Below, in pieces: positions 32,237 to 64,000 of a stretch of 64,000 nt of DNA; position 1 is the stretch's first letter; each line of letters opens with the position of its first letter. Position numbers and translations under genes: made by a program. The notes beneath the pieces are model-generated. The model was not told where the DNA came from. It ran no database searches and worked only from the letters and a program-made list of their open reading frames with translations. This DNA is from Phoronis australis (taxonomy: Eukaryota; Animalia; Phoronida): contig NMRA01000045.1 of NCBI GenBank assembly GCA_002633005.1, positions 861,552-925,551 on the forward strand, written 5' to 3'.

Positions 32237-32638
32237 TCGTTGTCAACAAAATACAAGTAAACACCATTTTTCAGGGGGGGGGATGGAGGAACGGGCACNG
32301 GGACATGCCGCTGCTATACATTTGGGTTGCCATTCCACTATTTAAAAATAAATTTCGTATGGATGGGAGCTCACTATTTGCTTGGTCTGATGATACCATG
32401 CACTGGACAGGATAGAGTACAGTAATGTAATATTTTCCAGATGAGATATAAATGTGGGTCATGATTTAAGTCCCCTTTGAATAGGTATGGACATGAGACA
32501 TGGTTCTAACATTTATTTAGCCTAGCATAAATATTGCCTCAGGCCCCCCTCCTCCATCCTTCCCTTAGTTGAAATGACCGCCTCCCGGACCATTTTATAC
32601 ATGTCTTGTGTCGAAAATGAACCATACATGTTACTTAC

Positions 32639-32941
32639 CTCTGTCGATGGCATGTGTACGACACCAGTACTTCGCCTTTTCTCCCTCAGCTTCCGTCTAT
32701 CCTTGGCAGATTTCCCTTTGAGCAAGTGATTCGGCCGGGAGCGCTTGTCTTTTGACCGGTTCCCGACGGCCCGGGACGGCGACTCGCGATCATCGTCTCC
32801 TACTGTTCTGTCACTGTCACCCTCCCCAGAGTCTCTATTTGGCGTGACCCTCGCGCGAACACCTCTTGTCTGTATTCGCCTATCCGTACTGTCGAATTCA
32901 TCATGATCCAAACTCTCCTGGCTCAGTGAATCCGAAGCCAT
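32639..32941 (-). CDS. PAWR: PRKC apoptosis WT1 regulator (Par-4), first coding exon
   Basis: aaaATGG start (MASDSLSQES...). Encodes KDRRKLREKRRSTGVVHMPSTE, matching the Par-4 NLS2/SAC core KRKLREKRRSTGVVNIP. Donor GAG|GTAAGT, 303 nt, phase 0. Confidence 0.92.
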
Positions 32942-33380
32942 TTTGACTCTTAACTGATCCAGGCGAGCAGACGGGCACCTGATCGTTTGATCGCGTATGT
33001 ATAAATCAAAACGCACCCACCTTTAGAAGAACTTATCGGTATCTGTTGATTTTATATCTTGTATTTATCACGTGCACAGTTGTAAAGGATAAATGCGAAA
33101 GAGAACCACAAATACACCTTCCGTCTTCCAAGTCTATAATCGCCGTAACTGATGCCGTGTGCTCCGTCTACATTTGAAGTCGGTGTTTGCTTACATCCGG
33201 TCCAGGTCAAAGGTCACATTCCTCAAATACCTGTCTACCTGCGTCAGGCGTACATAGGCCGGGTGCTGGGGTATTGTTCTACATCGTTTGAATTAGCGTT
33301 TAAGCGCTTTCTTGATAAAACAGCAGTGATAAACGAGAAATCCTATTTGTAAAACATACCCGGAACAAGACTCTAAAGAT
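32942..33380 (-). promoter_or_regulatory. Probable PAWR 5'UTR/promoter region
   Basis: CpG-enriched segment immediately upstream of the PAWR ATG, with an ETS-like CCGGAA near 33360. The TSS cannot be determined. Confidence 0.4.
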
Positions 33381-44023: not shown

Positions 44024-44538
44024 TGTTGATAGAAGGTGAGTTTTCAGCAGCTTCAGTACAAAAGCTCATCAGTGGGTTATGGTGAATATTAAACCCCGTT
44101 TCAAAGGTGGTAACTGAACCCTAATGATGGGTTGCAAAATGCTCATCACAAGGCAGAACCCAGACAACACAAAGGTATCCTCAAAATCACATGTCATTTT
44201 GTGTTCTATGTTGGTGACATTTTACTGCACTCAGATTGAAACATATTTCTGAGCTTGAGAAGAACAGACACTTTGTCATAACTTGAGACCGGGCTGAATC
44301 AGCGATCTTGATCCGATTGTCATTTGATGCTGCAACCAAGGCTTCGAACGATATGGATTTGTCACGTTCTCCCAAGCCTGGTGATCACTTTCTGAGTACT
44401 GAACATGTTGTGTCCAGTTTTACAACCCTGAGTGGTTTAAATCAAAAGCAAATCTAATTTCATTGGTACAAGCAGCTTTAAACTTGAAAAGTGAGAAGGA
44501 GGGTATTAACATCAACTGCAACAGGAAGGCAGCCTCAC

Positions 44539-44659
44539 CTTTGATGGCCGCACAGTGTTTCTTCACGTGGGCGGGGGTAAGGTGCAGGAAATTGGGTATC
44601 TTCATCAGCTCAGCATTGGCGTACTTTGAAGGTATAACGCCGTCGTTTTCACCTTGGTT
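44539..44659 (-). CDS. MRPS35: MRPS35 exon 4
   Basis: [40 protein letters not shown] contains the MRPS35 hallmark [10 protein letters not shown]. ttgcag|...|GTGAGG, 121 nt. Confidence 0.95.
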
Positions 44660-45284
44660 CTGCAATAGAGTATGGTAAATCTTCACTTATTTAGCACGCG
44701 ATATGGCTCAATTTTCACTCAGTTTTGTCAAATTTCTCCACAAAAATAAACATTACGGACATTTTAGGTTATTACAAGCATAGTCTGCAATGTGCACATG
44801 TCACAAAACAACATTTGCCAAAGTCCCCAATGTTTGCAAAGATTTAATCAGCCATTGAAAAATGATGATTTTGGCAAATTACTTTTAGGTGAAATAAATG
44901 GACAATTTACCAACTAATAAGAGCAACTGAATATACATTACACAGTACACATCAAAAGTAATCAGACAAAATACCGTTTCCTCATCATGACCTGTGATGA
45001 CTCATCATGTCAGGTCATTAAAAGTACTTTTATTAAGAATTCTGCTCGTGCTCAGCAAACATGACGGGGAATTATGGATCATTTTGTCTGACTATTTTTG
45101 GCGCATAATGTGCTGCAGCCCAAGTAATTACTGTCATAAAGTGAAACAACATAACCAGGTCAGCATTTAAGTGACCTTGTCCTGCCTGTGCAGCGACACC
45201 AATTGGCCGTCTAAGGAATTAAACATCAGAAGTATTGCAAAAAACGTACTCATCAACTCATTTGAAATGTCCAACAGTAGCACA

Positions 45285-48442: not shown

Positions 48443-48522
48443 CTCCCTTAAACGTCTCTTTTGTCTCTTAGCTCGAGTCACGGCTTGGGATCCAGGAATT
48501 TCAAACACTCTGAATTCTTCAT
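48443..48522 (-). CDS. MRPS35: MRPS35 exon 2
   Basis: (D)EEFRVFEIPGSQAVTRAKRQKRRLRE, atgtttag|...|GTACGT, phase 1 to 0, which fits both neighbouring exons. Confidence 0.82.
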
Positions 48523-50088
48523 CTAAACATGAATAAAACATATTGTATACATTACAGAACAAAAATGTTAATTCAGTGGTTCCAGAATACTCTTAAAATT
48601 AAGCACATCGATAAAAATTTTGGAAAGTTCAATAGAAAAATTGTAGGTCTAACCTCGGGTTCATCCAAGAGTTTCCCAAAAATGCATAATTGCCTTTTTA
48701 TGTCCCCAAGTCAAATTGTTATTATAGTGAGGTATGGTACAGTGGAGAAATTTGTCTGAATTTACATTTTATTATTTCTTACATCATAACTCATTTGTTA
48801 TCCTCGACAGTCCAATGATCCCCCACAGCACCTGTTAGCATGCTATGTGAAGGCTTGGTTGTTGCTTTACACATATTGAAAATTCAACATAACGTTATGC
48901 TCCCAGTAGGACGACTTTCCCCGATTTCGCTGATCAGGAACTCGGGTTACAGTCGCATTATCAGTTTGACAGTGATAACAAGGGGAGAAAATTGGTAAAC
49001 TACTGTTTACAAAGTCCAGCTCTCTCATTGTCTGCGTTTATTTGATAAGCTCACGTAGTCCAGCAATTAATTTTTTAACAGTGCGCCTGACGCTAACCGA
49101 TGTTTAAAAAATATTATTTCCAAACAACGTCCAACAAATGTCGTGAAGATGTCTTTTTTATGAAATACTATCACCAAAAAATTTCAAATGGAGAGAAACG
49201 GTTGTCTTTCAGAGAAATTAGACTTGACTTTCAACTTCTGATTCCTTTGTGTTACTGTCAGCTCTGACCCCCTTACTACCACAGCATTGTGTACCAACCG
49301 TTTGTTTGTCAAGTTTTATCAAACGTGATCAAATCGTTTCCTTGGAAATTTCTTGTTCTGAACAGTCCAGGGAATGATATGCAACGACTTATGTATGGGA
49401 ATTAAGACGACTTTGGCCAAGAATTCCAACTCTGCTTTTTGGTCACCATTGGCATTAACTTTTTCACTGTGTGCATTATCCAGAAATATGTTACGTTAGG
49501 CAAGGACAAGCGCGATATAATTGACTAGTATAGAACCAAAAAGGATTCATGAAAGTAAATGTTTTTTAAGTAACAATTTTAATTGTAAAATGTATTTTTG
49601 ACAAGATGAAAACCTCTTACTCGGTGAGCGGATTTGGCCTATTGGCCATTTAAAATACAGAGGATAAAATTAACACACAAATCCATGGCTTGGCATGGCC
49701 AAGGGGAGCGGGGATTGTTGTAGGCCCCTGCCCTGGCATAGCCAGCCAGCCAGCCAGCCAGCCGAGTGTCTTGAATAGATGTCCTAATGCCAAAAATGGC
49801 CTACGATGTTGACTAGTTACCCACCCTGCCCCAGCGTGCAGGATTGGTGGACCAGCTAGTTTCACAAGTGCCGCAAGATGTTCCGTACGTTGAAAGCCGG
49901 TAAATGTAAACTTTGACACAGTCGACAAAGTTTCAAAGTCAACAAAATTCAGTCAAAGTCACTCAAAGAAATTGTCAAACTTTGACTCAAAGTCAAAGTG
50001 ACCCGCGATTGTCAAGTTGCTTGGCATTTAATTTGTAATCTCAAAATTTTCAGTTCTGAATAAAACACAAATCCCAGTGACAACCAAC

Positions 50089-50209
50089 CATCGTTTAAAT
50101 TTAGTCCACCGTCTGTAACTTTCGACAAAGACCGAGAACATTTGATGTTGCTGCCTCGAAGGAAAGGGTGCCGAAAACGAGCTAAACACTTCGCAATGGG
50201 CATCGCCAT
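50089..50209 (-). CDS. MRPS35: MRPS35 exon 1 (mitochondrial targeting peptide)
   Basis: aacATGG start. MAMPIAKCLARFRHPFLRGSNIKCSRSLSKVTD is Arg/Ser-rich and acid-poor, like a presequence. Phase-1 donor G|GTTGGT (an alternative phase-1 donor lies at 50110). Confidence 0.75.
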
Positions 50210-50278
50210 GTTTGATTGCTAACTCTCGCTGTCGCTCGCGAGATTGATTTGCATATCGAGTGTCAGTGTTGCAGGGAA
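50210..50278. promoter_or_regulatory. 69-bp spacer between head-to-head MRPS35 and PPP1R12 start codons (bidirectional promoter core)
   Basis: CpG-rich. Contains a CTCGCGAG palindrome (TCTCGCGAGA-like), an octamer ATTTGCAT, and YY1-like ATGGCG at both start codons. Confidence 0.6.
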
Positions 50279-50524
50279 ATGGCGGACGAAAAACAGAAAA
50301 GTGCCTGTCTTAGACGGCACGATCAAATAAAACGGTGGGACGACTCAGACACATCGAAACAACCCACAGTGTTGAACAAAACGCAAACGAAAGTGAAATT
50401 TCATGATGGTTGCATATTTCTTGCGGCTTGTTCCTGTGGGGATGTTGAAGAAGTGACGACTCTTTTGAAAAGGGGTGCGGATATCAACACTGCAAATGTT
50501 GATGGGCTGACAGCGTTGCATCAG
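50279..50524 (+). CDS. PPP1R12A: Protein phosphatase 1 regulatory subunit 12 (MYPT1-like), canonical first coding exon
   Basis: MADEKQK...RHDQIKRW (MyPhoNE motif), KVKF (RVxF motif), then FLAACSCGDVEEVTTLLKRGADINTANVDGLTALHQ|GTACAG (ankyrin start), matching the MYPT1 N-terminus. The next exon is not in the window. The A/B/C paralog name is nominal for an invertebrate. Confidence 0.95.
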
Positions 50525-50692
50525 GTACAGTTCAAAAGTGGCTTTTATCTTGATCTTTGATTGCATTCTTGAACTACGCATTGGTTGATGCTCTAACATA
50601 CTTGCTTTTGCATTGAAATGAGCACTCGGTAACTTACTGTATTGTTCATTACCAGAAGAATTAGGCCGATGGTCGGACTACGGAGGACACCG

Positions 50693-50789
50693 TACTGGTC
50701 GGATATAGCGGTCCCTAATTTGGAGAACATGGCAATCACTGAATAATGGGCCTGTTCTCAAAAGCAGGGACCGCTTTATCCGACCAGTG
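50693..50789. mobile_element. Short MITE, family E
   Basis: actggtcggatatagcggtccc ... gggaccgctttatccgaccagt inverted repeat. Confidence 0.8.
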
Positions 50790-53700
50790 TTGGACGACAC
50801 ACTGCGGTCCCTGGTTTTAAGAACTAGACAGTCATTGAATATGGGGGTCCATTATTCAGTGGATCTCACAGGTTCTCTCTGACTATGTCAATGATCGCAG
50901 TCATTTGTAATGTTCTGTGATTTTTGACTACTGCAGATAAATTTAATCCTACTGCAAGTGCAATTTATTTGGCCACATGTTAAATCATCCCCTTGTCAGC
51001 CACACTTTCTTACAGTCAAGGTCAGAGCTTTTTGTTGGCCAGGTAACCTGTAATTTGTATATTTACTGTAAAAATTGAAACGAGATCATTGCAATTTTGG
51101 TGGTGTATTTACATTCTATTGTTCACAGATAATTGTTCCCATACATATCGCTTAGTATGCTTTATTCTAAGAATCAAAAAGTATATCGGTTGATCAGCTC
51201 CATTACAGTGCCATGGCCTATATGTCTATGACAGTATCATAGTATGACACCCACACCTGATGTATTGTATTGATCTGATCTAGAGCAGAATTTCTGCAGT
51301 CATAGCTTTTCTAAATTAACTGGATTACCACCTTACAAGCAATCACCCATTAATACCTGAGCGCTAATTCTACAAATGTTTTGTCAAAAAGCTGTGAAAC
51401 TGAGTGTTGATGCTCATTTTGAACGGAGCTGAATGTGGACTGGCTGAACTGTGTCAATTCAGTAATTAACATGTGATATTTTGTGGTCTGATTTTGAGAA
51501 CCAATTTCATTCACTGATTAGCAGGCATTATTCAACGAATGCCTGGTTTTCAAAATCAGGAACCACTGAAAGTCACTAATGCAACAGTCAACATATACAC
51601 AGGAGTCTACCTCAGTAAAAATCAGTTAATAGGACTCTTGATTAGTAGTCCCTGATTCTGAATATTATCAGTTTTATTAACCATTAATTACGGGCAGTAT
51701 TCAGGGATTTGCTAGTTTTCAAAATCAAGGACCAGTGAAAGTAACCGCTTCCAATGAAATTAGACTGACTGTGCATGTATTGATGAGTAGATACTGTAAT
51801 TGGATGGCTGGTAAATCAAGCTGAGGTTCAGATGGCCTGTCCAGACCTCCAGTTTGTCACTGTTGCAGGACTGCAATTTAGAGGAATTATCGCAGATCTG
51901 ACCTTAATGTTTGTCTGTTGCACGATATCATGATATTGAATCTACATCTCATTGTATGCGAAGCTTTATTATTTGCTGATCCTCTGGTTCTCAAAGTCAG
52001 TATTACTGTTGGCCCTCTGGTATAATCATCTGTGTGAATGCTCGAGATGTTGGATCACGGCTCAATCATAATTATTCTTTTGTGCAATAATAGAAACATA
52101 AGGCACGTGAAGCACTTGTTCTTATGTTCTGAAGGCTGGAGAACTTTGTGTGATTAGAGTTTGTAAGCTTTCTGTATGTGCCACGAGAAATTGATAACTC
52201 TATCCAAATCTGTACTGGCCTAGATTTATGAATGAAGAAATTGTACACTATTTAAACATGACTGTGAAGACAAATACACATTGTCATATTGCTGTCAAAT
52301 TTTACTCAGTTTAAACAGGATATTAGTAGGTCATAGTCGACTTCAAGTTTTATATCAGTCTCCTTGAGCTCTATGTACTTATTATTAGATTTATTCTTCA
52401 ATTGATTGTTGTCTTTAAGTTCTTTACTTTCTACCTCTTGAGTTATTATCGTGTGAACTTGATATTTTTGTCTTGGACATTGATGTACTTGTGAGCAATC
52501 GACCACTTCCTTGCTTGAGAGGTCAACTGATTTATTTAAAAAAAAAAATAGCCACATGATTGACTAATCAGATGGTATTGACTAATGAAATTGTGATGCC
52601 TGTCAAAAGTTTAGCTGAAAGAAAGTAGCCATTTCGAGATGATGTCAGACTTGGAAACCCATCTGATTTGGTGCGTGTTGCTGATGTTACAGATATTCGG
52701 TACAGCTTGCTGCAACTGAATTGTTTGATCGAGATAGTCTGCATCTATTAGCTGTAGGAATTCAACCGAATGTCTAGAAAATGAATACCATCCATCATTT
52801 TCGCAGTCTGCACTGTTACCTTTGCACATCAAAACAACTGTTAGTTCTTTACACGCCAGTTCAGTTTGCTAGTGGTTGAATGGCTCCCCTTCGAGTGTCC
52901 TAGTTTCACAGAACATTTTGTTGAGAAAGAATTATATATTTGAAAATGGTCGCTCTTGGGTCGTACAAGTAGTCATTTACCCTATTGGTTAGATCTAGAT
53001 GGAACCAGGTATTCTGTGTCAAGCACCAAGTTTATTTAATATGGAAATTCAGCGCGAAAATTGCTTCAACTCGACATATTCAGTTCCCAATCTATACAAG
53101 CTCTCCGTGCCAACGTGTTTTTGCTGGGTGCATGTGTTGGCGAGTGTTCACTATGCCTTGACATTTGTTCTGACCATCTCCCAACATTCCACTCCGTTCT
53201 TATCTAATATAATAACTAGCCGGAGCACACTGTAACACACTGCTTTACCTTATAAGTAGGCAGCGTTGGTAACAGGCCATCCAGCATGTATTCTGTACTA
53301 GGCGCTGTTTCCAGTTAGGAAGAACTGATCAAATTAATGGCAGTGACAGCAAAGGGATAGCTGATTTGACCTGGAAACAAGGTTCTGTGATGGGATTTCA
53401 GTTGAGAGGGACTTATCAATGGGTACTGATCTAGAGAAAATAGGATGGTTTTATCTTAGGCATTGAGTTTTGAATTGGGAAGAAATGATTGACTTTAGGA
53501 TAGGGTTAATAAATGGTAATAAAAGGGCAGATTTGACTTGAAAAGATTTGTTGAGTTTTGAGCTGGGAGAGGTGGTTGAATTAAAGGTAATGTCAGCAAA
53601 AATAAAATACAAGTTATGTTGGGTTTGGTTACGAATAGTTATAGACTGAACGTTTGACTGTCCTGTGGAGTATGATGCATATGAGTGTGTTTGAGTGTAT

Positions 53701-54815
53701 GAGTCAGTTATCATAAGGTTGTGCATTGACCTGACCTCTTGAACCTTTCCTAGTGCTGCATGGACACTGTTTTTGTTTGCAAATGTGCACTCAATGATGC
53801 TGGTGGATTGACTTCCTCAGACTGGTGTTGATGACTGCAGTACTCCACCTACGTGACTGGCTTGATATGTTCCTACTTATTACGTGTGGCAAATTAATGA
53901 TTTTAGGAGCATGCCCCCACGTCAATTACCCAGAAATAATTTCAGTGGTGCATTGTGATTGCTAAAGACGGGCTATCGGGCCCATTAAAATTGGAAGTGA
54001 AAAAGGAAAAAAAACAACAAACATGTCCCATAGGTCCTGCAAATTGACCCTTAGACTGAGGCCATGTGAGTCAATCCACTTTTTCTCTTGTTTTTCGAAT
54101 GGTCCCTGGTCGTGATGTAAACACTTCAATTGTAACACTCAACATGGCGAACAAAGTAAATTTGATGTTGAATTTTCTTGAAAAATAGTCTTCAAGAACA
54201 TGTTTCTTCAGTAGCATGTTCACTCTGTACACATTTGCAGCATTCCGACTTAGTTACTGTGTCGGCCTTTGTAGTAGTTAAAATTTGCCATTTCAGCAAT
54301 TTTTCAATTGTTAATGACTGTCTTGATGAGCTCCCTGCACACAGTGCACAGAATGTTCATATGATTTATGGACATTTTGATCGGGGTCATATTTCCTGTA
54401 TTTCTACCACAGATTTGTTTATTCTTTCCATTAAAATCAGTGTCAGTTTTATCTATCGGGTTGCATGAGTGACCGCTCGTTTCGTCATGTTCTACACTGG
54501 AGTAACTGCTCTATTAATGCTGTCATTTTAGCCTTTTTGTTTTGTGTTTTGTGGCATGCACAGCACATAGTCCCTTAGGTACAAGTCAGATGAACGGGAA
54601 GCTTTATCATGGAACCTCCGTACAAGTGCGTCCCCTTTTTATCTAATTCACTCTCAAAAGAGTTGGTATTCTAATTTTGTTGCCGCATCACAAGTTTATA
54701 GAGTTGAGTCTCTCTCTCTCTCTCTCCACTAAGGGCATACGATTCACGTGATATCTTTTACTCACAAGTATTTTTTCATGTAGCTCTACAGGTGTCGTCT
54801 TCCTCAAAGCTTTAA

Positions 54816-55484
54816 AGGCTCTTTCTTATACAGTTAACTCCGATATTTTCAAAGCTTCGATGCTAAATGTGGTTAACTGCGAAGTTCAGCATTTTGTATT
54901 TTCATCAGTTTCGAGCTTTGGAGTTAGTCAGATAGATAACTGGTTCAGCGACGTTATTGCAAGGAGGCACTAATATGACGGTTTGTGATGTGCCTTGGTG
55001 TTTTTGTCCTTGTCATTAAAAATTACAAGGACCTATCCCTCTTCGCAAATGGAAACTGGAATGTCAACTTCATATGGCGGTCACCGCTTGCCACATTGGA
55101 CGATGACGTACTGAAAAAATGACTCTTGAGTAGACTAACAGCTGATCTGAACAAAGGCGCATTGGTGGACCTCATTTTGCGTATACCTTCCATTTAGTGA
55201 TTTTTAAATGTAACAAATATACAGGTAATACCGTGGATAAACTGATACAGAATGTTTATACTGCCAAATTGATAAATATTATAAAACAATGTTAACAAAT
55301 ATTAACCAGTCACTCCCCAGTGTTGGCAAACCGCTGTCGATAATTCCGATGGCGTCAAAGTTAATGTTCCCATTGTAGCAAAAGCGCAAATCAACATCTA
55401 CTCTGTAGTTAACTTGGGCTGCTAACTTTGATTCAAGATCAAAGATAAGTGTTCTCATTGACCAGGAGCCTGTGGGAAGGCCTT
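54816..55484. mobile_element. Degenerate family B MITE, copy 3
   Basis: Ends aggctctttcttatacagttaactcc ... gggaaggcct. Internal aagttaatgttc and gttaact motifs are shared with family B. Confidence 0.5.
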
Positions 55485-58400
55485 TAATCATGAGAACCTG
55501 TTATGTTGTCATGGATGACTGAAATTTTAGAATTGCAATAGTCTCATACTGTTGCTGGCATTTGGCTGATGGTTATTTTTAGACATGTTGCATAACGGGA
55601 TCTGAACCCAATAAATCATCCCCTGTGTAGGTTTTATTTGCTTAACTTCCTGGGAGATGTTATCCTTACTTCTGATTGTGCAAATTTCACACTCTAGTCC
55701 AACATAAAGTCCAGGGCTGACACATGCCAAGTATATTCCTGGATGTTGTTGCCTTGGGCAATCCTCACTTACAGGGGTCCAGAAGTTTGAGCTGGTTCTC
55801 CAAATGCAGGACCCTTGTAACTGACAATTACCTTGTCGTGAGCACATGGGTGGCTCTTGTTCTTTGCCTCCTGTGTTTTGTTTAACTTTCAAAGTCTCTA
55901 TTTGCCATAAACAATACAGTGCGATGATGGAGACGTCCTTGAAATCACCTGTGCCCTTGTGAATACAGTATATTGCAAATTTTAGTTCTCAAAAATACAC
56001 AACTTGCTAAGCCTTTCAGTGCCACCTGGCAAAAATACCCATAGTATCCTACTTGGTTTGTGTTTGCTAGAATCAGTTGCCTGTGTTAATACCTACCCTA
56101 GTACCCTCTACCCCTTTCTGGCTGCTCAAAAATTTATTTTGTCAATGCCATTCCTTGGCTTAATGCCCAACCCTGCTTTTTTATTTCCTAGTTAAATACG
56201 CCCTGGACATTAGCCCAAATGAATACCGTGAATTCTAGGTAAGGAAATCTGAAAAATATAATAAGCTAGAAAATTAGTCATCAGCCTTGAAGTAAATGAA
56301 AACTCAAGACGACAAACATTTGTGTTTGTTTTTGTTTTTCTCTATGATTGGGAAACACTGTTGTACTAGTGCATCATTGCGGAATCAGGGATTTCTATTT
56401 TATTCTATTATCTTGAACTTTCTTTGCATCATACGGTAGTTTCTGTAATGTTGAATTGTTCATTTCATAGGTAGTGTTCTATCTAGCAGTTCTGAATGCT
56501 TTAGAGTTGGCGATTCCACTGGTGTTGTCAACCAGAGAATTTTCAGTTAGAAATCCTATTTTCAGAATACTGTCCTCATTGCCATTCTTGTTTCAGTCAC
56601 CTGTCATTTTTCCTTCTCTGCCATATTCCTCGTTGGGTTTCACCAGTGCTTGCTTACGCATTGCTTTCGTTTGATTGTAATCTTTGGTGATTTAGAGGTG
56701 AAAACAGTTTCTAAACCTAAGCTGTTTCAACCTGTGCTAATGTTCTCACAGCAGTGATGGGCCTTTATCCCACACCCATGAATGCTAGTGCAACAAAACA
56801 CAACATTCCCCCCCTATTGTCTGTTCTGTTTTCATTGCCGCAATCTGGAAGCATGTCGGTGGCCTGTTACCCATTTCATTGATCACGAGTGCTTCTTTAT
56901 CCTAGCTGCAACTATCGTTACCTACCGACTATAGCCTTGCTGCACTTGTTGTGATTTCTAAAACGGTGCGCATTCTCTTGTTTATTTTGGCCCATACCTG
57001 TGCAGGTTATTAACGTTGGCAATCTGGGTCAGTTCCTGTATGTTGTAACAGGAGACTTGTCGGAAGATGCATTACCCATGTTCCATTTGTCTTACATCGC
57101 ATAATTTCTTTTAGAAACTGGGCCTAGTTAAGTCTCTTGTTTCATGCACTGTACGCTGCTGCTTTGAATTTATCTAATATGTTAACCTATGCAGATGTAT
57201 CAGATGTGTCTTGTCTTGTTTAAAAAAAAAGAAAAAATTTGTATCGAGTTCCCGTTGCGCTTGATCTGTTTTTTTAAATTGTTCGTAACTGTTTAACTTG
57301 TAGTTACATTTCTAAGCTCCTTTTATTCATTGGCTAAAGTCACCTCGCTGTCAAAACTTGTTCGCAAGTTACAATAAAATCTCATCATAGGACACAATAT
57401 AACAGACAGGTGTAGTTTTTTCTCATTTTTCCATAAATGTTTTTAGTACCAGAATGATGCTTTACCATATGATATTATAGGTAATCATTTCAATTCCAAA
57501 AACCATAATCCATAAGATCTTTCTGTTCAAATAATAGAGAAACTCCAATATCCCAGTACCCCTCACAGACTCAAAAGAACAAAAATTTTGGATTTATAAA
57601 TAAGCTTAACACACTTGAACCTAATTTCAGTGATCCATTTTTGTTGTTGTATTAACGTATATTTATTCTACTTTTCGACAAACAAGCGTATCGTTTAGCG
57701 GATCTGGATCGCCTCTTTTACTTTCAGATTTATTTTCTACGTTATTTTCCAAAATTGGAATTCAAACATTCCAGTCACTGCAGTTAGTCACTCGCCACCA
57801 ATGTCTGCAACGTTTTGATACACCAGCTCTGTCTAATTCATTTGAACCCCTTTCTAGTGTTTCGTTCAGGTACAAGCTTTTCAATTTGTTTTTCAAACTC
57901 AATTCCCTGTAAGCAGTCAATTTCCGTGTATATCGCAGTGTATCAAGCTCTTGAAACGAGAGGTGAATCATCCTTCGAAGAATGAAGTGTCTTCCATAAA
58001 TAGCTGGTCTTCAGTAAACACTGTTTTGTTTGAAACTAGTAAAATTAAACAGGGCTCAGTTTCACTGTTTGGGGCTCTAGCTTGAAGACTGAGAGAATCA
58101 CCCAGGTTTTCAAGTGCTCTCAACAGTAGTTTTGGTTCCTGTTAAATTGATAATGGGCCAATTATTTGAAAAGAATATTTACCTGGGGTGTTGATGGTGA
58201 TAGTTATGCAATCATGTCTATAGGAAATGTAACCCATTTTGTAAAGATTTGGTTGGAAGCTCTTCATGTGAATAAAGGTGGGCAATAATAAAGTGCTATT
58301 GAGTTGATGTTATAAAACCCATTGATCTCCCTAGTTTCAGGTGCCTGTGCTATAAATTATCAGAAAGGCCCTTTTCCTCTAACATTAAAGCCTCTGTTTT

Positions 58401-59975
58401 AGGGTAGTGTCCGTCAGTGGCAAACCTGTTTTCCGTCTGCAAAAATGTAGATTTGTACGGAAATTTGGCTTGTAGTTTGCAAGTACGTAAAACCAGTTAA
58501 AAATATGCAAATTCGAAGCAGATTGTTTACCTAGTTGTTTCTCACTTAGTAATAAGCTAATGGTAGAAACGGAAGATTTTTAAATTAGAAATTAAAAAAT
58601 TATATATTCATACTATTTTAGTTAAAAAACGGGAGTTCCGAAGTCGGAAACTTGCTCTGATTCATTTGAAGTATTGCAAGAGAATTGACGAAGCGCACGG
58701 CTTCTATCGATATTCGTCATCACCGACCTAAACGCCTTGTTTTCTTGCGCACGTGGTGTCCTCACACTGTTCGTGACATGGCGAGACATTGGCAACAGTC
58801 GAGGTTTTTTGGCAGGCTGTACGGTACTTTTGTGAATAATTAAGAACATGTCATCTAGTGTAAAACATTGTTAAGTAAGGTCTTAAGCACTTTCTGCAGA
58901 AATGTTTTTGGTTTAAGAAATGAACATAACTTTAGACTTATCACTATTCATTGTAGAGACTGCAGTTGAGCATTCCTACAGTCGCGTTACTATTAATTGT
59001 GAAGTAAACTTGAGCTGTTAAACATCGACATTATTGGGAAACGCCTTTTTGAACACTATGCCTTTAGACACAGTTGTAGTTTGGTGATGCTAATAAAGCA
59101 ATATACCCCAGTTCAAAGTCAAGGCACCCACAGACATCTGTGTTGTTGCCTTTTCTGGTGGAATGGCTTTACAACCATACCAGCCATGTGGTCAGATGAC
59201 TGACCAGCTACAAGACGGGATGTCACTGACCTATTCATTATAGGGCTGTGATCTGCAGGAAGTCTTTAAAGTCCAGGTGTGTGTAGAAACACTCTTGAAT
59301 CTGTTAGTCTCCAGCTGCTGATAGAAAGTTCTCATTTACTTTGCTGAGGGATGCTTTTAGTGAATTGCCCATGTACTGGCTCAGTAAACTGAATAGCTAT
59401 TGCTAAAATGACATGGGCTGTTGAACAGTTTAACAGAAGGTACTAGAATGTTTTGAGTGCATTTTTGAAAGACTGTATGGTTCAGTGACAGTGGACCAAT
59501 GTAGTAATCCTGTTGCATCAGCCTGAAACTTGCTACAATGCTTAGTCTGTTCCCTTTTGGTATTCACTGTGAATTGCTGTGGTATAACTGAGTTCTTACG
59601 ATTGTCGGCTCTTGTTCATAATAGCACAATTTGGCTCGAAAGTCTGTAGATCTGTCAGTGTTCCCTGATGCAATGATCAGTGTTTTCCACAACCTGTTTT
59701 GACTCGTCGCAGTAACGATTTTACTTCAGCCTTGACGAGTTAGGCTTACCTGTGTCGTTTGAAAACCTTATTCAACATACTTGAACTTATGAGGTTTTAG
59801 TTATTCATACTCTTCGTACAAATTCGCACTTTTTTGACTTTCGGCACCTCTTCAGTGCATTTATTCCAAGACTTTACAAACAGTCCACCTACGGTAGTGA
59901 TACAAATTTCTGACGGTGTTTGTGGATTTTATAATTCTGGTGGAGTTAAAATTTTCTGAACGATTGGGTCCATGT

Positions 59976-60220
59976 CAGGGCTCGACATAACGAGCTGCAG
60001 GTCGCATTTGCGACCTGAAATTTGGAAATGCGAGCTGAGATTTTTGTCAGCTCGTATCAAGTCGCAAAATGCGACCTGGAATTTCCAACGAATGCGAGCT
60101 GAGTTTTTACACTTCTCAACAGATACCTGGCAAATACAAAGCAGCTCTTGTTAATCCGACCGTTATTTGGTCGCTGCCAAATCCAAGTTCAAAACAACAC
60201 TANAATAACGTCGAGCCCTG
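59976..60220. mobile_element. hAT-like MITE with an 11-bp TIR and 5-bp TSD
   Basis: CAGGGCTCGAC ... GTCGAGCCCTG flanked by CATGT on both sides, with internal tgcgacctg and tgcgagctgag subrepeats. Confidence 0.85.
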
Positions 60221-62773
60221 CATGTGTTGCCAAACTTTATACATTGTTGCTTTTACCACAAACAGCTGTTCCTTCATTGTATCTTGAAGTTACTCTCTGT
60301 TCTAACTAAATTAGTCAAATTGAGTTGCATTGTTTTCAAACTCTCCTTCTGTTCGGTTAATGGGCATTCCTGTCTTTAATTAGGGGAAAGTCTTACATCT
60401 CCAGCCAGACCTCCTTGCCCTACACTGGGAAGTTGCACCTGGGAAGTTGCACCCTAGTACACCCAAACGCATGTGGTGCTGGTTGGATGTCGTTAAGAAG
60501 GTTTGACGTCAGCCCTGCTGACCATTACTGCTCGTTGGCTGACATTCTCGCCTTAATAACTTCATTAACTCTACACCTAGCAATACTATGTTAACATTGG
60601 CTCGTTATGCAACCTGCACTGGGCGACTTGTTAAGAATTTAGGTATGGTTAAGTAATTAATACTACCAGGCGTCTTTTTGGAGTTACTTCCCCTGTTTCT
60701 AAGTTCCTATCTCTCACCGGTTTCTCTTGAAAACAAGAAAACTTGTATGTTTCGCAATGTTGCCCAGTGGCAACATGTAAAGTTGTGGTTTGTCGCTGGG
60801 TCAGTTATGGTAATGATGAATGACAGTTCTTGGGTTAAAGTAAGCTCCACAGAGGGCATTCATCCACTTTCGACAGGTGAAGGTTTTGTTTATAAGCCTC
60901 AACAGGAGACTTATGATGTCATCCATATTTTTGCTTCTAACCTTTTTCTTATTAAAAGTTCATGAGATGAGAGCCTTTCATCCCGGTCTTAATTTATCAG
61001 TCTCAGGTCATTGGGCACTATTGTCACCAGATATTTATGAATGCCCTGCTAATGTGTCATTGGTAATATGTAATGAATTACAGGTAGTTGATTATTATTT
61101 ATATCCCTTGACTGAATGGAGCATGCATTGCTTGACGTCTCATTAGTGGCATTCCCATCTGTTTTGAAATCATTGATGAAATATTTCAGGAAAAACATAC
61201 GTGGGATTAATTCTACAAACGGTCATGTCATGAATACCGGAAAGTTATATCTCCCCTGTTGGCAGACAGTAACACTACACACTTGTACACAATCAGTGCA
61301 GCACCAGGCATGTGTCAGCTGCAGTGATTTTGTGGCAAAAATCGGGCATAACGTGCCCACATTTTTAGAACCAGTTTAATGCCCCGTTATTCAGTAGAGA
61401 AACCTGGTTCTCGAAATGCAGGCATGCTATATCCGACTATTACCGATTTTGTTATATAGATAATGATCAGAATTTTAATTGCATCGACAAACTATGAAGG
61501 TCGTGAGTAATTCTCCCCGTATTAATCCATCGAAATTTGGTGAACACTCAGAAACCTGGCAAATTTGTGTCCCAATGCAAATATTTTCTCATTATAAGTC
61601 TTCATTGGATTGTTTTCACATTGGAACAACATCAATATGTAGTTTTGTTAATAACTATCAAAAGTGTCCCAAACTGGTGGTTTTATGAGTTAAGTATTGA
61701 TGTCTATGTCAAAACTCCTTGAAGGTAATGCAACAGATGTATACGGGCATAGGATACAGATTGTAAGTGAATAGGCATATATATTCATATTCATATATCA
61801 GTCTCTTCTAATATGAAATATCATTGGGTGTACTCATCCTGGCTTTACCCCCAGGGTGTTGGTATTGAGAAACTCAAATATCATGGTGTTGGTGGAGCGC
61901 GGTATGTGAAAATGAAATTTTTGAAAAGGCAGGTTACGTGTTTACTCGAATTGCCAATTTTAGGAGGTTGCATTTCTGTTGATCGCGTGCAATAAGCATG
62001 TAAAACCAGCTGAATATTCATAGTGTTCCGTTTATTTGCCCCCTGATATGTAATATCGTGCTTAGAGCTGAAAATAATTTCAAAGTGATGTACCTAGATA
62101 CTAATAAAAATGAACTAAAATACGGAATGTATAACTTTGGGGTGGACATTTAGCAGACGGACTATGGTATGAAAAATCAAGACAAAAACTGACAATAGGA
62201 TATGACAATGTTTCTTGATAAATGGCCCCATTGTGGCATTAATGCTTTTGATAACAGTGGTGGCAATTGTGTTATTCCTTCTGCTTAGGGATAGGGTGCC
62301 AGATGATCTCTGACCATGGTCAGATATAGTCCCACTGGGCCACTAAAGGGATTATCATTCCTTGTCAACTGGCAACATCAAGTTTAATGCGATTATCCTG
62401 GGGCAGTGGATTGGAGAAGTGTATTTTGTATACAATTATCCAGTGGTTGTCACTGTCTGACTGAACTGTCTGACTGGTTCTTGTTTACTGCTGCCACTGC
62501 AGAAACTGGAGCCCTGCAATTGCTCCTCGTTTTGCTGTGTTATAATATAGCATTACAGTCATTTTACTTGATCTAGGAGGGTTGATACAACATAGCTGAC
62601 TGATGAGTGGTTTCCTTTGTTTAATTCTATTGTGAATGGGTCGTTGCTGATGACTTCTGTCTACAACACAGACAGTGTAGTTGGCTAATCCTGTGTGCTT
62701 GACTGTGGATCACTGCAGAAAGATCCGGACTTGGAGATAGGATTTTTCAGCCTGTTAAGTCTACCTGTCGAAA

Positions 62774-63937
62774 ATGGGGTGTACTTGTTCAAAGCAATCA
62801 ACTCGTAGGAGTACAAGTAAACAGGAAAAGGTGTCTGGAGAAAATGTCTCTGAAGTCGTTTCTATTGAGGAGGCGGCATGTGATAAGAGGATGGGTGACA
62901 AGCTGGAACGCTTGGAGACTGATATATGTGGAAATAAGATGAGAAATGAGGCGAAGGATGGCTTAGGCAACAAGGAGATTTCACTGAATGTGGACGATGT
63001 TAGGGCAGTCTATGTCAAATGTTTGCCAGACACAGATGTGAGTCCTGAGATAGAATGCTGTGGGAGTACACTGTCGAATAGCTTGGAGACAGTGTGCCTT
63101 TTGAATGACAACTGTGAGGGTAGTCAGCATGAACTAAATGAGTTGTCTTCACAGAATGATATTTGCTACGCCAGTGTTCATCAATGTCCCAATATTTCAA
63201 CTGAAGAGTCGTGCAGTTCAGGTCATAATGGACAATATATGCCCCCATTTGCAGCCTGTGAGATATCAGAACAGAGTGCTAAGTTCACGGTGCCCCCGTC
63301 AATAACGTTCTCTCTGGTTGGCTACGAGAGCGGGAACGGCAACCTTGTGGCGACTGCCAGTGTCAACCCAGTTGTGTATGCGTCTCTACCAGTAGTCATT
63401 ACCGTCTCTACCAACAGTACTGATAAAGATGAAGATGAAAAAGGAGAAATGGTTGGCCAGTGCCAAGCACCCCAGAATAATGGAGTTGATATTACTACTG
63501 ATAACAACGAGGAAATCGGAGACAATAACCCGATGGATTACAAACTGAATTCACTAACATGGGATGTTTCTGCTGATGATGTTACCAGCACAACCTATGT
63601 AATCACGGAAACTGACTTGAGCTTTAATGTTGATTTGCACAATTTTGATGCTCCGCCAATACAGGGCATTTTGAAAACTAGGGCTCAGTCATCAAATTTT
63701 GCAAGACCAAAGAAGCGTGTTAGTTTCCCCGATGTTTTGGAAGATGTCGTCTGTATCGATACCCTCTCTGTGGGATCGATGTACGAAGAGGAGGATATTG
63801 GTGGTGTCATGGCCAATGGCAGCCATATTTGTGGCAGCCATGTTGATTGGAAAGATGCGTTAAGGTATTGGCAGTTAGACGGTTGTCCAGATCTGGATCG
63901 TGGGGTTGGTGACAGTTACCTGTGTCCTCGTCATCAG
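62774..63937 (+). CDS. 388-codon exon, probable alternative first coding exon of PPP1R12/MYPT (acylation signal, SILK and RVxF motifs, degenerate ankyrin segment)
   Basis: Uninterrupted frame from AAAATGG, with an in-frame TAA upstream at 62756. MGCTCSK N-terminus, GILK at 63665-63676, KKRVSF at 63710-63727, ending CAT CAG|GTAGTG. Probably absent from the ORF track because no stop occurs before the window end. Confidence 0.75.
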
Positions 63938-64000
63938 GTAGTGTTTGATGATCTTGTTTCTGCTCTTGTTCTAAGTGTGTGTTCTATAACTAGGTGTTGT

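Follow-up and report, generated by a model that had tools for sequence, protein, structure and literature searches.

The MYPT locus and its canonical first exon

The window analysed here is a 64,000-nt stretch of Phoronis australis contig NMRA01000045.1, and all positions below are given in window coordinates. The coding part of a normal MYPT (PPP1R12) exon 1 is located at 50279–50524 on the + strand and encodes 82 amino acids. These comprise the MyPhoNE motif RHDQIKRW (50315–50338, +; found by a pattern scan), the RVxF motif KVKF (50390–50401, +), ankyrin repeat 1, and the start of repeat 2 (LHQ), after which the exon ends on a phase-0 donor, CAG/GTACAG. The translation of 50390–50524, from KVKF through LHQ, has 45 residues. 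The exon 1 peptide shows its best identities (66–73%) to mollusc and annelid MYPT, its PDB match is chicken MYPT1 (1s70_B, E = 2e-32), and a Pfam search returned 5 Ank families.

Exon 1 is covered at a depth of 25–33 in two RNA runs (stranded, of the same species label, mostly 99% alike). Its donor is used, as 20 and 25 reads join it to sequence translating to ACIDDNLDMV, the usual MYPT exon 2. Exon 2 (ACIDD) is absent from the 64,000-nt window and none of the RNA joints from exon 1 land within 49800–64000, so that 50525–64000 can be assigned to intron 1. In run X4, one contig joins 50509 back to 50265, off splice sites; the raw reads do not contain this joint, which probably arose during library construction or assembly.

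A mitochondrial ribosomal protein S35 gene (50089–50210, 48493–48520, and 44420–44686, all on the − strand; PDB E = 5e-9) lies head to head with MYPT. The reads of S35 (from about 50210) and of MYPT (from about 50265) begin no more than about 60 bases apart in a CpG-rich stretch, which indicates that MYPT exon 1 is placed on a compact bidirectional promoter. A separate promoter in intron 1 would release MYPT from the promoter shared with S35. Elsewhere in the window, an exon at 32522–33022 (−) carries RRKLREKRRSTGVV, and a similar RRSTG motif is present in a MYPT protein. This exon had no Pfam or PDB match; we take its product to be PAWR/Par-4-like. PAWR adjoins PPP1R12A in vertebrates, and a PAWR-like exon near MYPT would, if true, represent old synteny.

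A 388-codon open reading frame in intron 1

Intron 1 holds an open frame of 414 codons (62759–64000), the longest of the window, the second longest having 166 codons. From its first ATG to a CATCAG/GT sequence, it forms an ORF of 388 codons (62774–63937, +) with coding-like base use, which we infer to be an alternative first coding exon. At the stop frequency of the intron, a frame of this length is expected 6e-7 times per window. The base use by codon position is like that of exon 1, and the remaining five frames across the ORF contain 13–42 stops each. The ORF is not a chance frame. The CpG observed/expected ratio is 0.58 in the ORF, 0.53 in the intron, and 1.0 in exon 1.

The encoded protein starts with MGCTCSK and continues with approximately 290 acidic residues, followed by GILK (residues 298–301) and KKRVSF (residues 313–318). 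About 310 of the 388 residues lack an equivalent in exon 1. The ORF was assigned to no Pfam family at all, transposon families included. The possibility that the ORF is an in-frame cassette following exon 1 was rejected, the most pyrimidine-rich acceptor nearby, at 62750, being out of frame. The in-frame AGs at 62671, 62680, and 62740 cannot carry the frame through because an in-frame stop follows just before 62759.

The ORF lies on the same strand as exon 1 and upstream of exon 2 (beyond 64000), and both donors are in phase 0. At its end, CATCAG/GTAGTG (63932–63943, +) encodes His-Gln followed by a predicted phase-0 donor, with 9 letters identical to the exon 1 junction. CATCAG/GTA stands at both exon ends, which are 2 exact places among 5 pattern matches on the + strand, and 0.49% of codon shuffles contain an in-frame CAY CAG GTR at any place in the frame (pattern chosen post hoc). 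The 63 nt past 63937 contain 31 T, against at most 24 T in any 63-nt window of the ORF; this sharp, T-rich, intron-like shift supports an exon end at 63937. The ORF donor is weak: it agrees with the consensus at 6 of 9 positions, and the frame contains 11 further GT sites that reach 6 or 7. The used donor of exon 1, CAG/GTACAG, shares its first six letters with that of the ORF.

Predicted acylation and PP1-docking motifs

The first ATG of the frame opens MGCTCSK (62774–62794, +), a predicted signal for N-myristoylation (Gly2, Ser6) and palmitoylation (Cys3, Cys5). It conforms to the N-myristoylation consensus MGXXXS/T, as given in PMC4736023. Such an acylation start appeared in 0.19% of 20000 shuffles, the pattern having been picked after the sequence was seen.

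Toward the other end of the ORF, GILK (63665–63676, +; residues 298–301) is a predicted secondary PP1-docking motif of the SILK type, and KKRVSF (63710–63727, +) contains a strict RVxF motif with Ser at the x position in a basic context. PMC5874294 names S/GILK as a PP1-docking motif and gives the RVxF pattern as [KR][KR][VI]{P}[FW], which KRVSF (residues 314–318) fits. Strict RVxF motifs were present in 0.8% of 20000 shuffles, and SILK followed by RVxF in 0.01% of 20000, both patterns being chosen post hoc; GILK precedes RVSF by 14 residues. The pattern scan found MyPhoNE in exon 1 and not in the ORF. Since GILK precedes RVSF and MyPhoNE is lost, the docking module of the ORF appears to be KNL1/RIF1-like and not MYPT-like.

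The initial annotation had pointed to a phosphorylatable Ser within a basic RVSF, and KKRVSF indeed reads so at 63710–63727; that annotation names neither GILK nor the loss of MyPhoNE. Phosphorylation of the RVSF Ser by Aurora B blocks PP1 binding in KNL1 and RIF1, according to PMC5874294 and PMC13691376. In exon 1, Thr directly precedes KVKF in 4 of 30 exon-1 sequences, that of P. australis among them. The Thr just before KVKF in vertebrate MYPT1 is presumably a PKC site, of which literature searches gave no confirmation; if real, it would weaken the idea of RVSF as the sole switchable motif.

Relationship between the ORF tail and exon 1

The same annotation had proposed, from a by-eye alignment, that the 3′ end of the ORF is a diverged duplicate of exon 1. 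The translation of 63710–63937 comprises 76 residues, from KKRVSF through PRHQ. The six identities that it listed (G, I, V, D, A, and L) are found in register in a gap-free 19-mer (exon 1 residues 62–80; ORF residues 345–363), and the HQ/GT that it placed after an insertion of about 20 residues follows the block after 23 residues. The RVxF motif, said to lie a similar distance upstream, is 6 residues further away in the ORF, with 31 residues from its Phe to the Gly of the block compared with 25 in exon 1. The gap-free block can be extended to 33 residues (63764–63862, +; ORF residues 331–363), of which 9 are identical to exon 1 residues 48–80; this candidate for a decayed ankyrin repeat 1 has p = 0.04–0.25 when considered alone. 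The global alignment assigns no exon 1 counterpart to the following 23 residues (63863–63931, +).

Against shuffled sequences, the end-to-end collinearity of the two peptides rose modestly above chance, whereas the 19-mer stayed within the background, at least 6 identities being reached in 24.7% of 1500 shuffles. Global alignments were made from RVxF to the exon end with 3 scoring schemes and 3000 shuffles each. They gave p = 0.0003 unanchored, 0.002–0.005 with KRVSF fixed, 0.006–0.021 with KRVSF and Q fixed, and 0.028–0.095 with KRVSF and HQ fixed. We consider the null with KRVSF and Q fixed the fairest, because the region was picked by its RVxF and CAG is donor consensus. Averaged over 30 exon-1 sequences, fixing KRVSF and Q gave p = 0.002, and fixing KRVSF and HQ gave 0.018. 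When these 30 sequences were built into an HMM, the tail scored 3.0 bits (p = 0.006 free, 0.019 anchored), and the ankyrin part of this HMM alone gave p = 0.12. Local alignment of the tail with exon 1 yielded a BLOSUM62 score of 30 (p = 0.042), and comparison at the DNA level p = 0.37. The 33-residue block shares 6–10 of 33 identities with each of the 30 exon-1 sequences, keeps 4 of 17 invariant MYPT columns, and has Gly-Gly at the position expected for helix 2. Its 33 codons agree with those of exon 1 at the first position in 14 cases, at the second in 19, and at the third in 8. The third positions match at chance level; therefore, any duplication would be old enough for silent sites to be saturated.

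The ankyrin ancestry suggested for the tail gained nothing from the profile methods, Pfam, HMM, and hhalign all being without signal. Even with E values up to 10, Pfam assigned no Ank family to the ORF. With a generic HMM built from 114 non-MYPT ankyrin repeats, exon 1 scored 35.7 bits and the tail had no reportable score, and hhalign returned a probability of 0.34% (E = 0.18). A PDB sequence search with the tail gave 0 matches. Single-sequence AlphaFold2 placed strands in the block of the tail (pLDDT 42); the exon 1 control, a model of equally low confidence at pLDDT 42, was helical at 56–64. By eye, VMANGSHI of the tail resembles LMANGADV of a designed ankyrin in the same register. A second by-eye register, GCPDLD...LCPRHQ versus GADIN...LTALHQ, was discarded, as no aligner or profile picked it. 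As judged by every profile test applied, the ORF tail is not an ankyrin repeat. The proposed tandem duplication with ankyrin decay is compatible with the weak yet consistent collinearity from end to end and with the identical 9-nt junction; the 19-mer is at background, and an ankyrin signal is lacking. From these comparisons, descent of the tail from exon 1 is likely but marginal.

RNA coverage of the ORF

The RNA survey covered 18–19% of each raw run, and some reads were filtered out. The sense depth over three bins of the ORF was 0.64, 0, and 0 in run X1, 0.42, 0.7, and 0 in X2, and 0 in X3 and X4, which is within the range of unique intron bins (0–1.9). No read crossed the ORF donor in the 4 runs, and the last bin (63546–64000) had a depth of 0 in all 4, compared with 45 junction reads for exon 1. 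In the RNA sampled, an ORF isoform would therefore not exceed a few percent of the main isoform. The best reading is that use of the ORF as a first exon is rare or tissue-specific.

Intron 1 also contains a family of short inverted repeats (MITE-like) at 50694–50788, 51526–51583, 51693–51752, 55792–55837, and 61384–61444. It includes a 43-base hairpin with a 9-base loop, and reads of other copies pile on some members. The repeats at 57384–57857 and 59754–60227 have high depth on both strands with many mismatches, probably from transcribed copies elsewhere in the genome. Unlike these nearby repeats, the ORF bears no repeat-derived read pile.

Search for relatives of the ORF

A word-indexed search of proteins of 680–2000 aa yielded an orthologue of the ORF in 0 of 98 candidates, and phmmer against 1.84 billion cluster representatives gave 1 match and no orthologue. 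This sole match was rejected as a homologue, since it has internal repeats and matches only ORF residues 146–177. DUF294 matches (E 0.16–0.25) and atlas matches (scores at most 0.77) were likewise rejected as noise.

Of 388 proteins collected, 261 carry the start of exon 2; most of them were retrieved by searching with exon 1 or because they share a cluster with a match so obtained. Among these 261, none has a non-canonical sequence before exon 2, and none has SILK in place of MyPhoNE. RefSeq isoforms labelled X1, usually the longest, are among the 261 canonical ones, so a long alternative N-terminus seems to be unannotated in the surveyed molluscs and crustaceans. A search for long MYPT isoforms gave 11 MYPT-like proteins among the 120 matches listed, a list dominated by unrelated ankyrin proteins, and the 9 new ones inspected all have the canonical exon-1 end. 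One of these carries a carboxylesterase fusion that probably reflects an error in the gene model. A Diaphorina citri MYPT model repeats exon 1 several times in nearly identical form, which has the look of an assembly artefact and not of a natural duplication. Targeted full-text searches of a library with few subscription journals found no acylated alternative MYPT N-terminus, and a membrane-anchored MYPT isoform is apparently undescribed.

Origin of the ORF

Splicing of the ORF to MYPT exon 2 is fairly probable in our judgement. The explanation we prefer, with a rough probability of 45%, is that MYPT has in the ORF an alternative first coding exon, probably an old tandem copy of exon 1; spliced to exon 2 at CAG/GT, it would give a predicted membrane-anchored isoform. 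If splicing to exon 2 is granted, duplication is somewhat favoured over convergence, because the collinear RVxF, block, and His are more simply inherited than separately gained; convergence is kept alive by SILK, the loss of MyPhoNE, and the absent ankyrin signal. Under convergence, a first exon with the same predicted function would have arisen independently, from coding sequence that was new or recruited. Selection for PP1 docking and for completion of repeat 2 would have brought in RVSF, SILK, and the terminal His, Gln would derive from the donor consensus, and the likeness of the middle would be due to chance. The p values of the 19-mer (0.25), of the DNA (0.37), and of the ankyrin-only profile (0.12), the empty generic ankyrin search, and the hhalign probability of 0.34% all agree with such an origin, as do docking of the SILK-RVSF and not the MyPhoNE-KVKF type and the roughly 310 of 388 residues without exon 1 counterpart. 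However, even with KRVSF and HQ fixed, 4 of 5 global and profile tests gave p = 0.018–0.04 (0.095 in the fifth), and the matches, with 6–10 of 33 identities to all 30 exon-1 sequences, include VD and AL, which are positions of the MYPT repeat. We regard an independent origin as rather unlikely.

The ORF might also belong to a separate nested gene on the same strand, whose product, a small PP1-targeting protein with a lipid anchor and SILK-RVSF, would have no joint to exon 2, in which case HQ/GT would be coincidental or the frame would run to its own stop past the window. The frame is open to base 64000, no read crosses the junction, and none of the 261 MYPT proteins has such an N-terminus; moreover, an acylation signal with SILK-RVSF would be a complete targeting subunit alone. 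We hold this unlikely; against it stands the in-frame CAY CAG GTR, found in 0.49% of codon shuffles and here placed exactly at the composition shift and in the phase needed by exon 2. A disused exon or a mobile-element-derived frame in decay is very improbable: RNA at intron level, the lack of a homologue in the protein searches, and an intron-like CpG ratio of 0.58 would suit it, but 414 codons are open, the start signal, motifs, and donor are intact, and neither a Pfam transposon family nor a repeat-derived read pile was detected.

Proposed function of the putative alternative first exon

If the ORF is an alternative MYPT first exon derived from exon 1, its transcript would start at an intron 1 promoter that had little or no activity in the RNA sampled. 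Translation from MGCTCSK would give a myristoylated and palmitoylated N-terminus, and about 290 acidic, probably disordered residues would serve as a spacer. GILK and KKRVSF would dock PP1 in place of MyPhoNE and KVKF, which may relax the bias toward PP1-beta and myosin, and a basophilic kinase could phosphorylate the RVSF Ser and so release PP1. Ankyrin repeat 1 would have decayed, whereas repeat 2 would be completed by the retained His-Gln, leaving the later repeats and the C-terminus intact. Changes in the choice of PP1 isoform and in substrate shaping would be expected, because the preference for PP1-beta comes from MyPhoNE and PP1 is contacted by ankyrin repeats 1, 5, 6, and 8 (PMC13545437). 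In its fullest and more tentative form, the proposal is that an old duplicate of exon 1 was rebuilt as a second N-terminus, making a lipid-anchored, kinase-switchable PP1 adaptor with repeat 1 dissolved down to the His-Gln that repeat 2 requires.

The MYPT N-terminus sets which PP1 isoform is bound and which substrates are met. A natural isoform in which SILK-RVSF and a membrane anchor replace this module, with the later ankyrin repeats and the ROCK/PKG-regulated tail unchanged, would offer a direct way to study how docking motifs retarget one scaffold. If true, the ORF would also exemplify a duplicated exon that lost its fold yet kept short motifs and splice-phase residues. Its importance would be modest for an exon confined to one lineage and seldom used, which is what the empty searches suggest.

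Comparison with known systems

In human PPP1R12A, a rare promoter in intron 1, P2, drives an exon that is spliced onto exon 2 to give a delta-N transcript, according to PMC9367544. The ORF resembles it as a rare first exon in intron 1, joined to exon 2 (a predicted joint in the ORF), with removal of MyPhoNE, KVKF, and ankyrin repeat 1. The human exon is described there as non-coding, with PP1 binding expected to be lost, whereas the ORF is long and would bring RVxF and SILK motifs of its own together with a predicted lipid anchor. Tandem exon duplication accounts for 39 human N-terminal substitutions in a catalogue whose MYPT-family event, in PPP1R12B, is C-terminal (PMC8373072). As in those cases, the ORF would be an additional first exon that agrees in phase and in its terminal residues and is used through an alternative promoter. 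The catalogued pairs have clear homology and are mostly conserved across species, whereas the homology of the ORF is marginal and no orthologue was found in the protein collections.

KNL1 and RIF1 have the same order of S/GILK and a basic RVSF with Ser as an Aurora-B-type site, as described in PMC5874294 and PMC13691376. They are kinetochore and chromatin proteins with no sequence relation found to the ORF, whose docking is predicted from motifs. Further background came from PMC6377682, PMC5170614, and PMC13755552. For the lipid anchor, sperm hexokinase HK1S offers a parallel: a tissue-specific first-exon swap adds Gly2 myristoylation and Cys palmitoylation and directs the protein to the plasma membrane (PMC4736023). 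HK1S is an unrelated protein and, as presented there, has no Ser6, which the ORF has.

The anchor of the ORF, predicted as an N-terminal acylation supplied by an alternative exon, differs from that of MYPT3 and TIMAP, which is a C-terminal prenylation. MYPT3 and TIMAP (PPP1R16A/B) are MYPT-family PP1 subunits that are lipid-tethered to membranes; they are encoded by separate genes, carry a C-terminal prenylation signal, and keep MyPhoNE. If the fuller and more tentative proposal given above is true, one gene would encode both MYPT1-like and TIMAP-like subunits.
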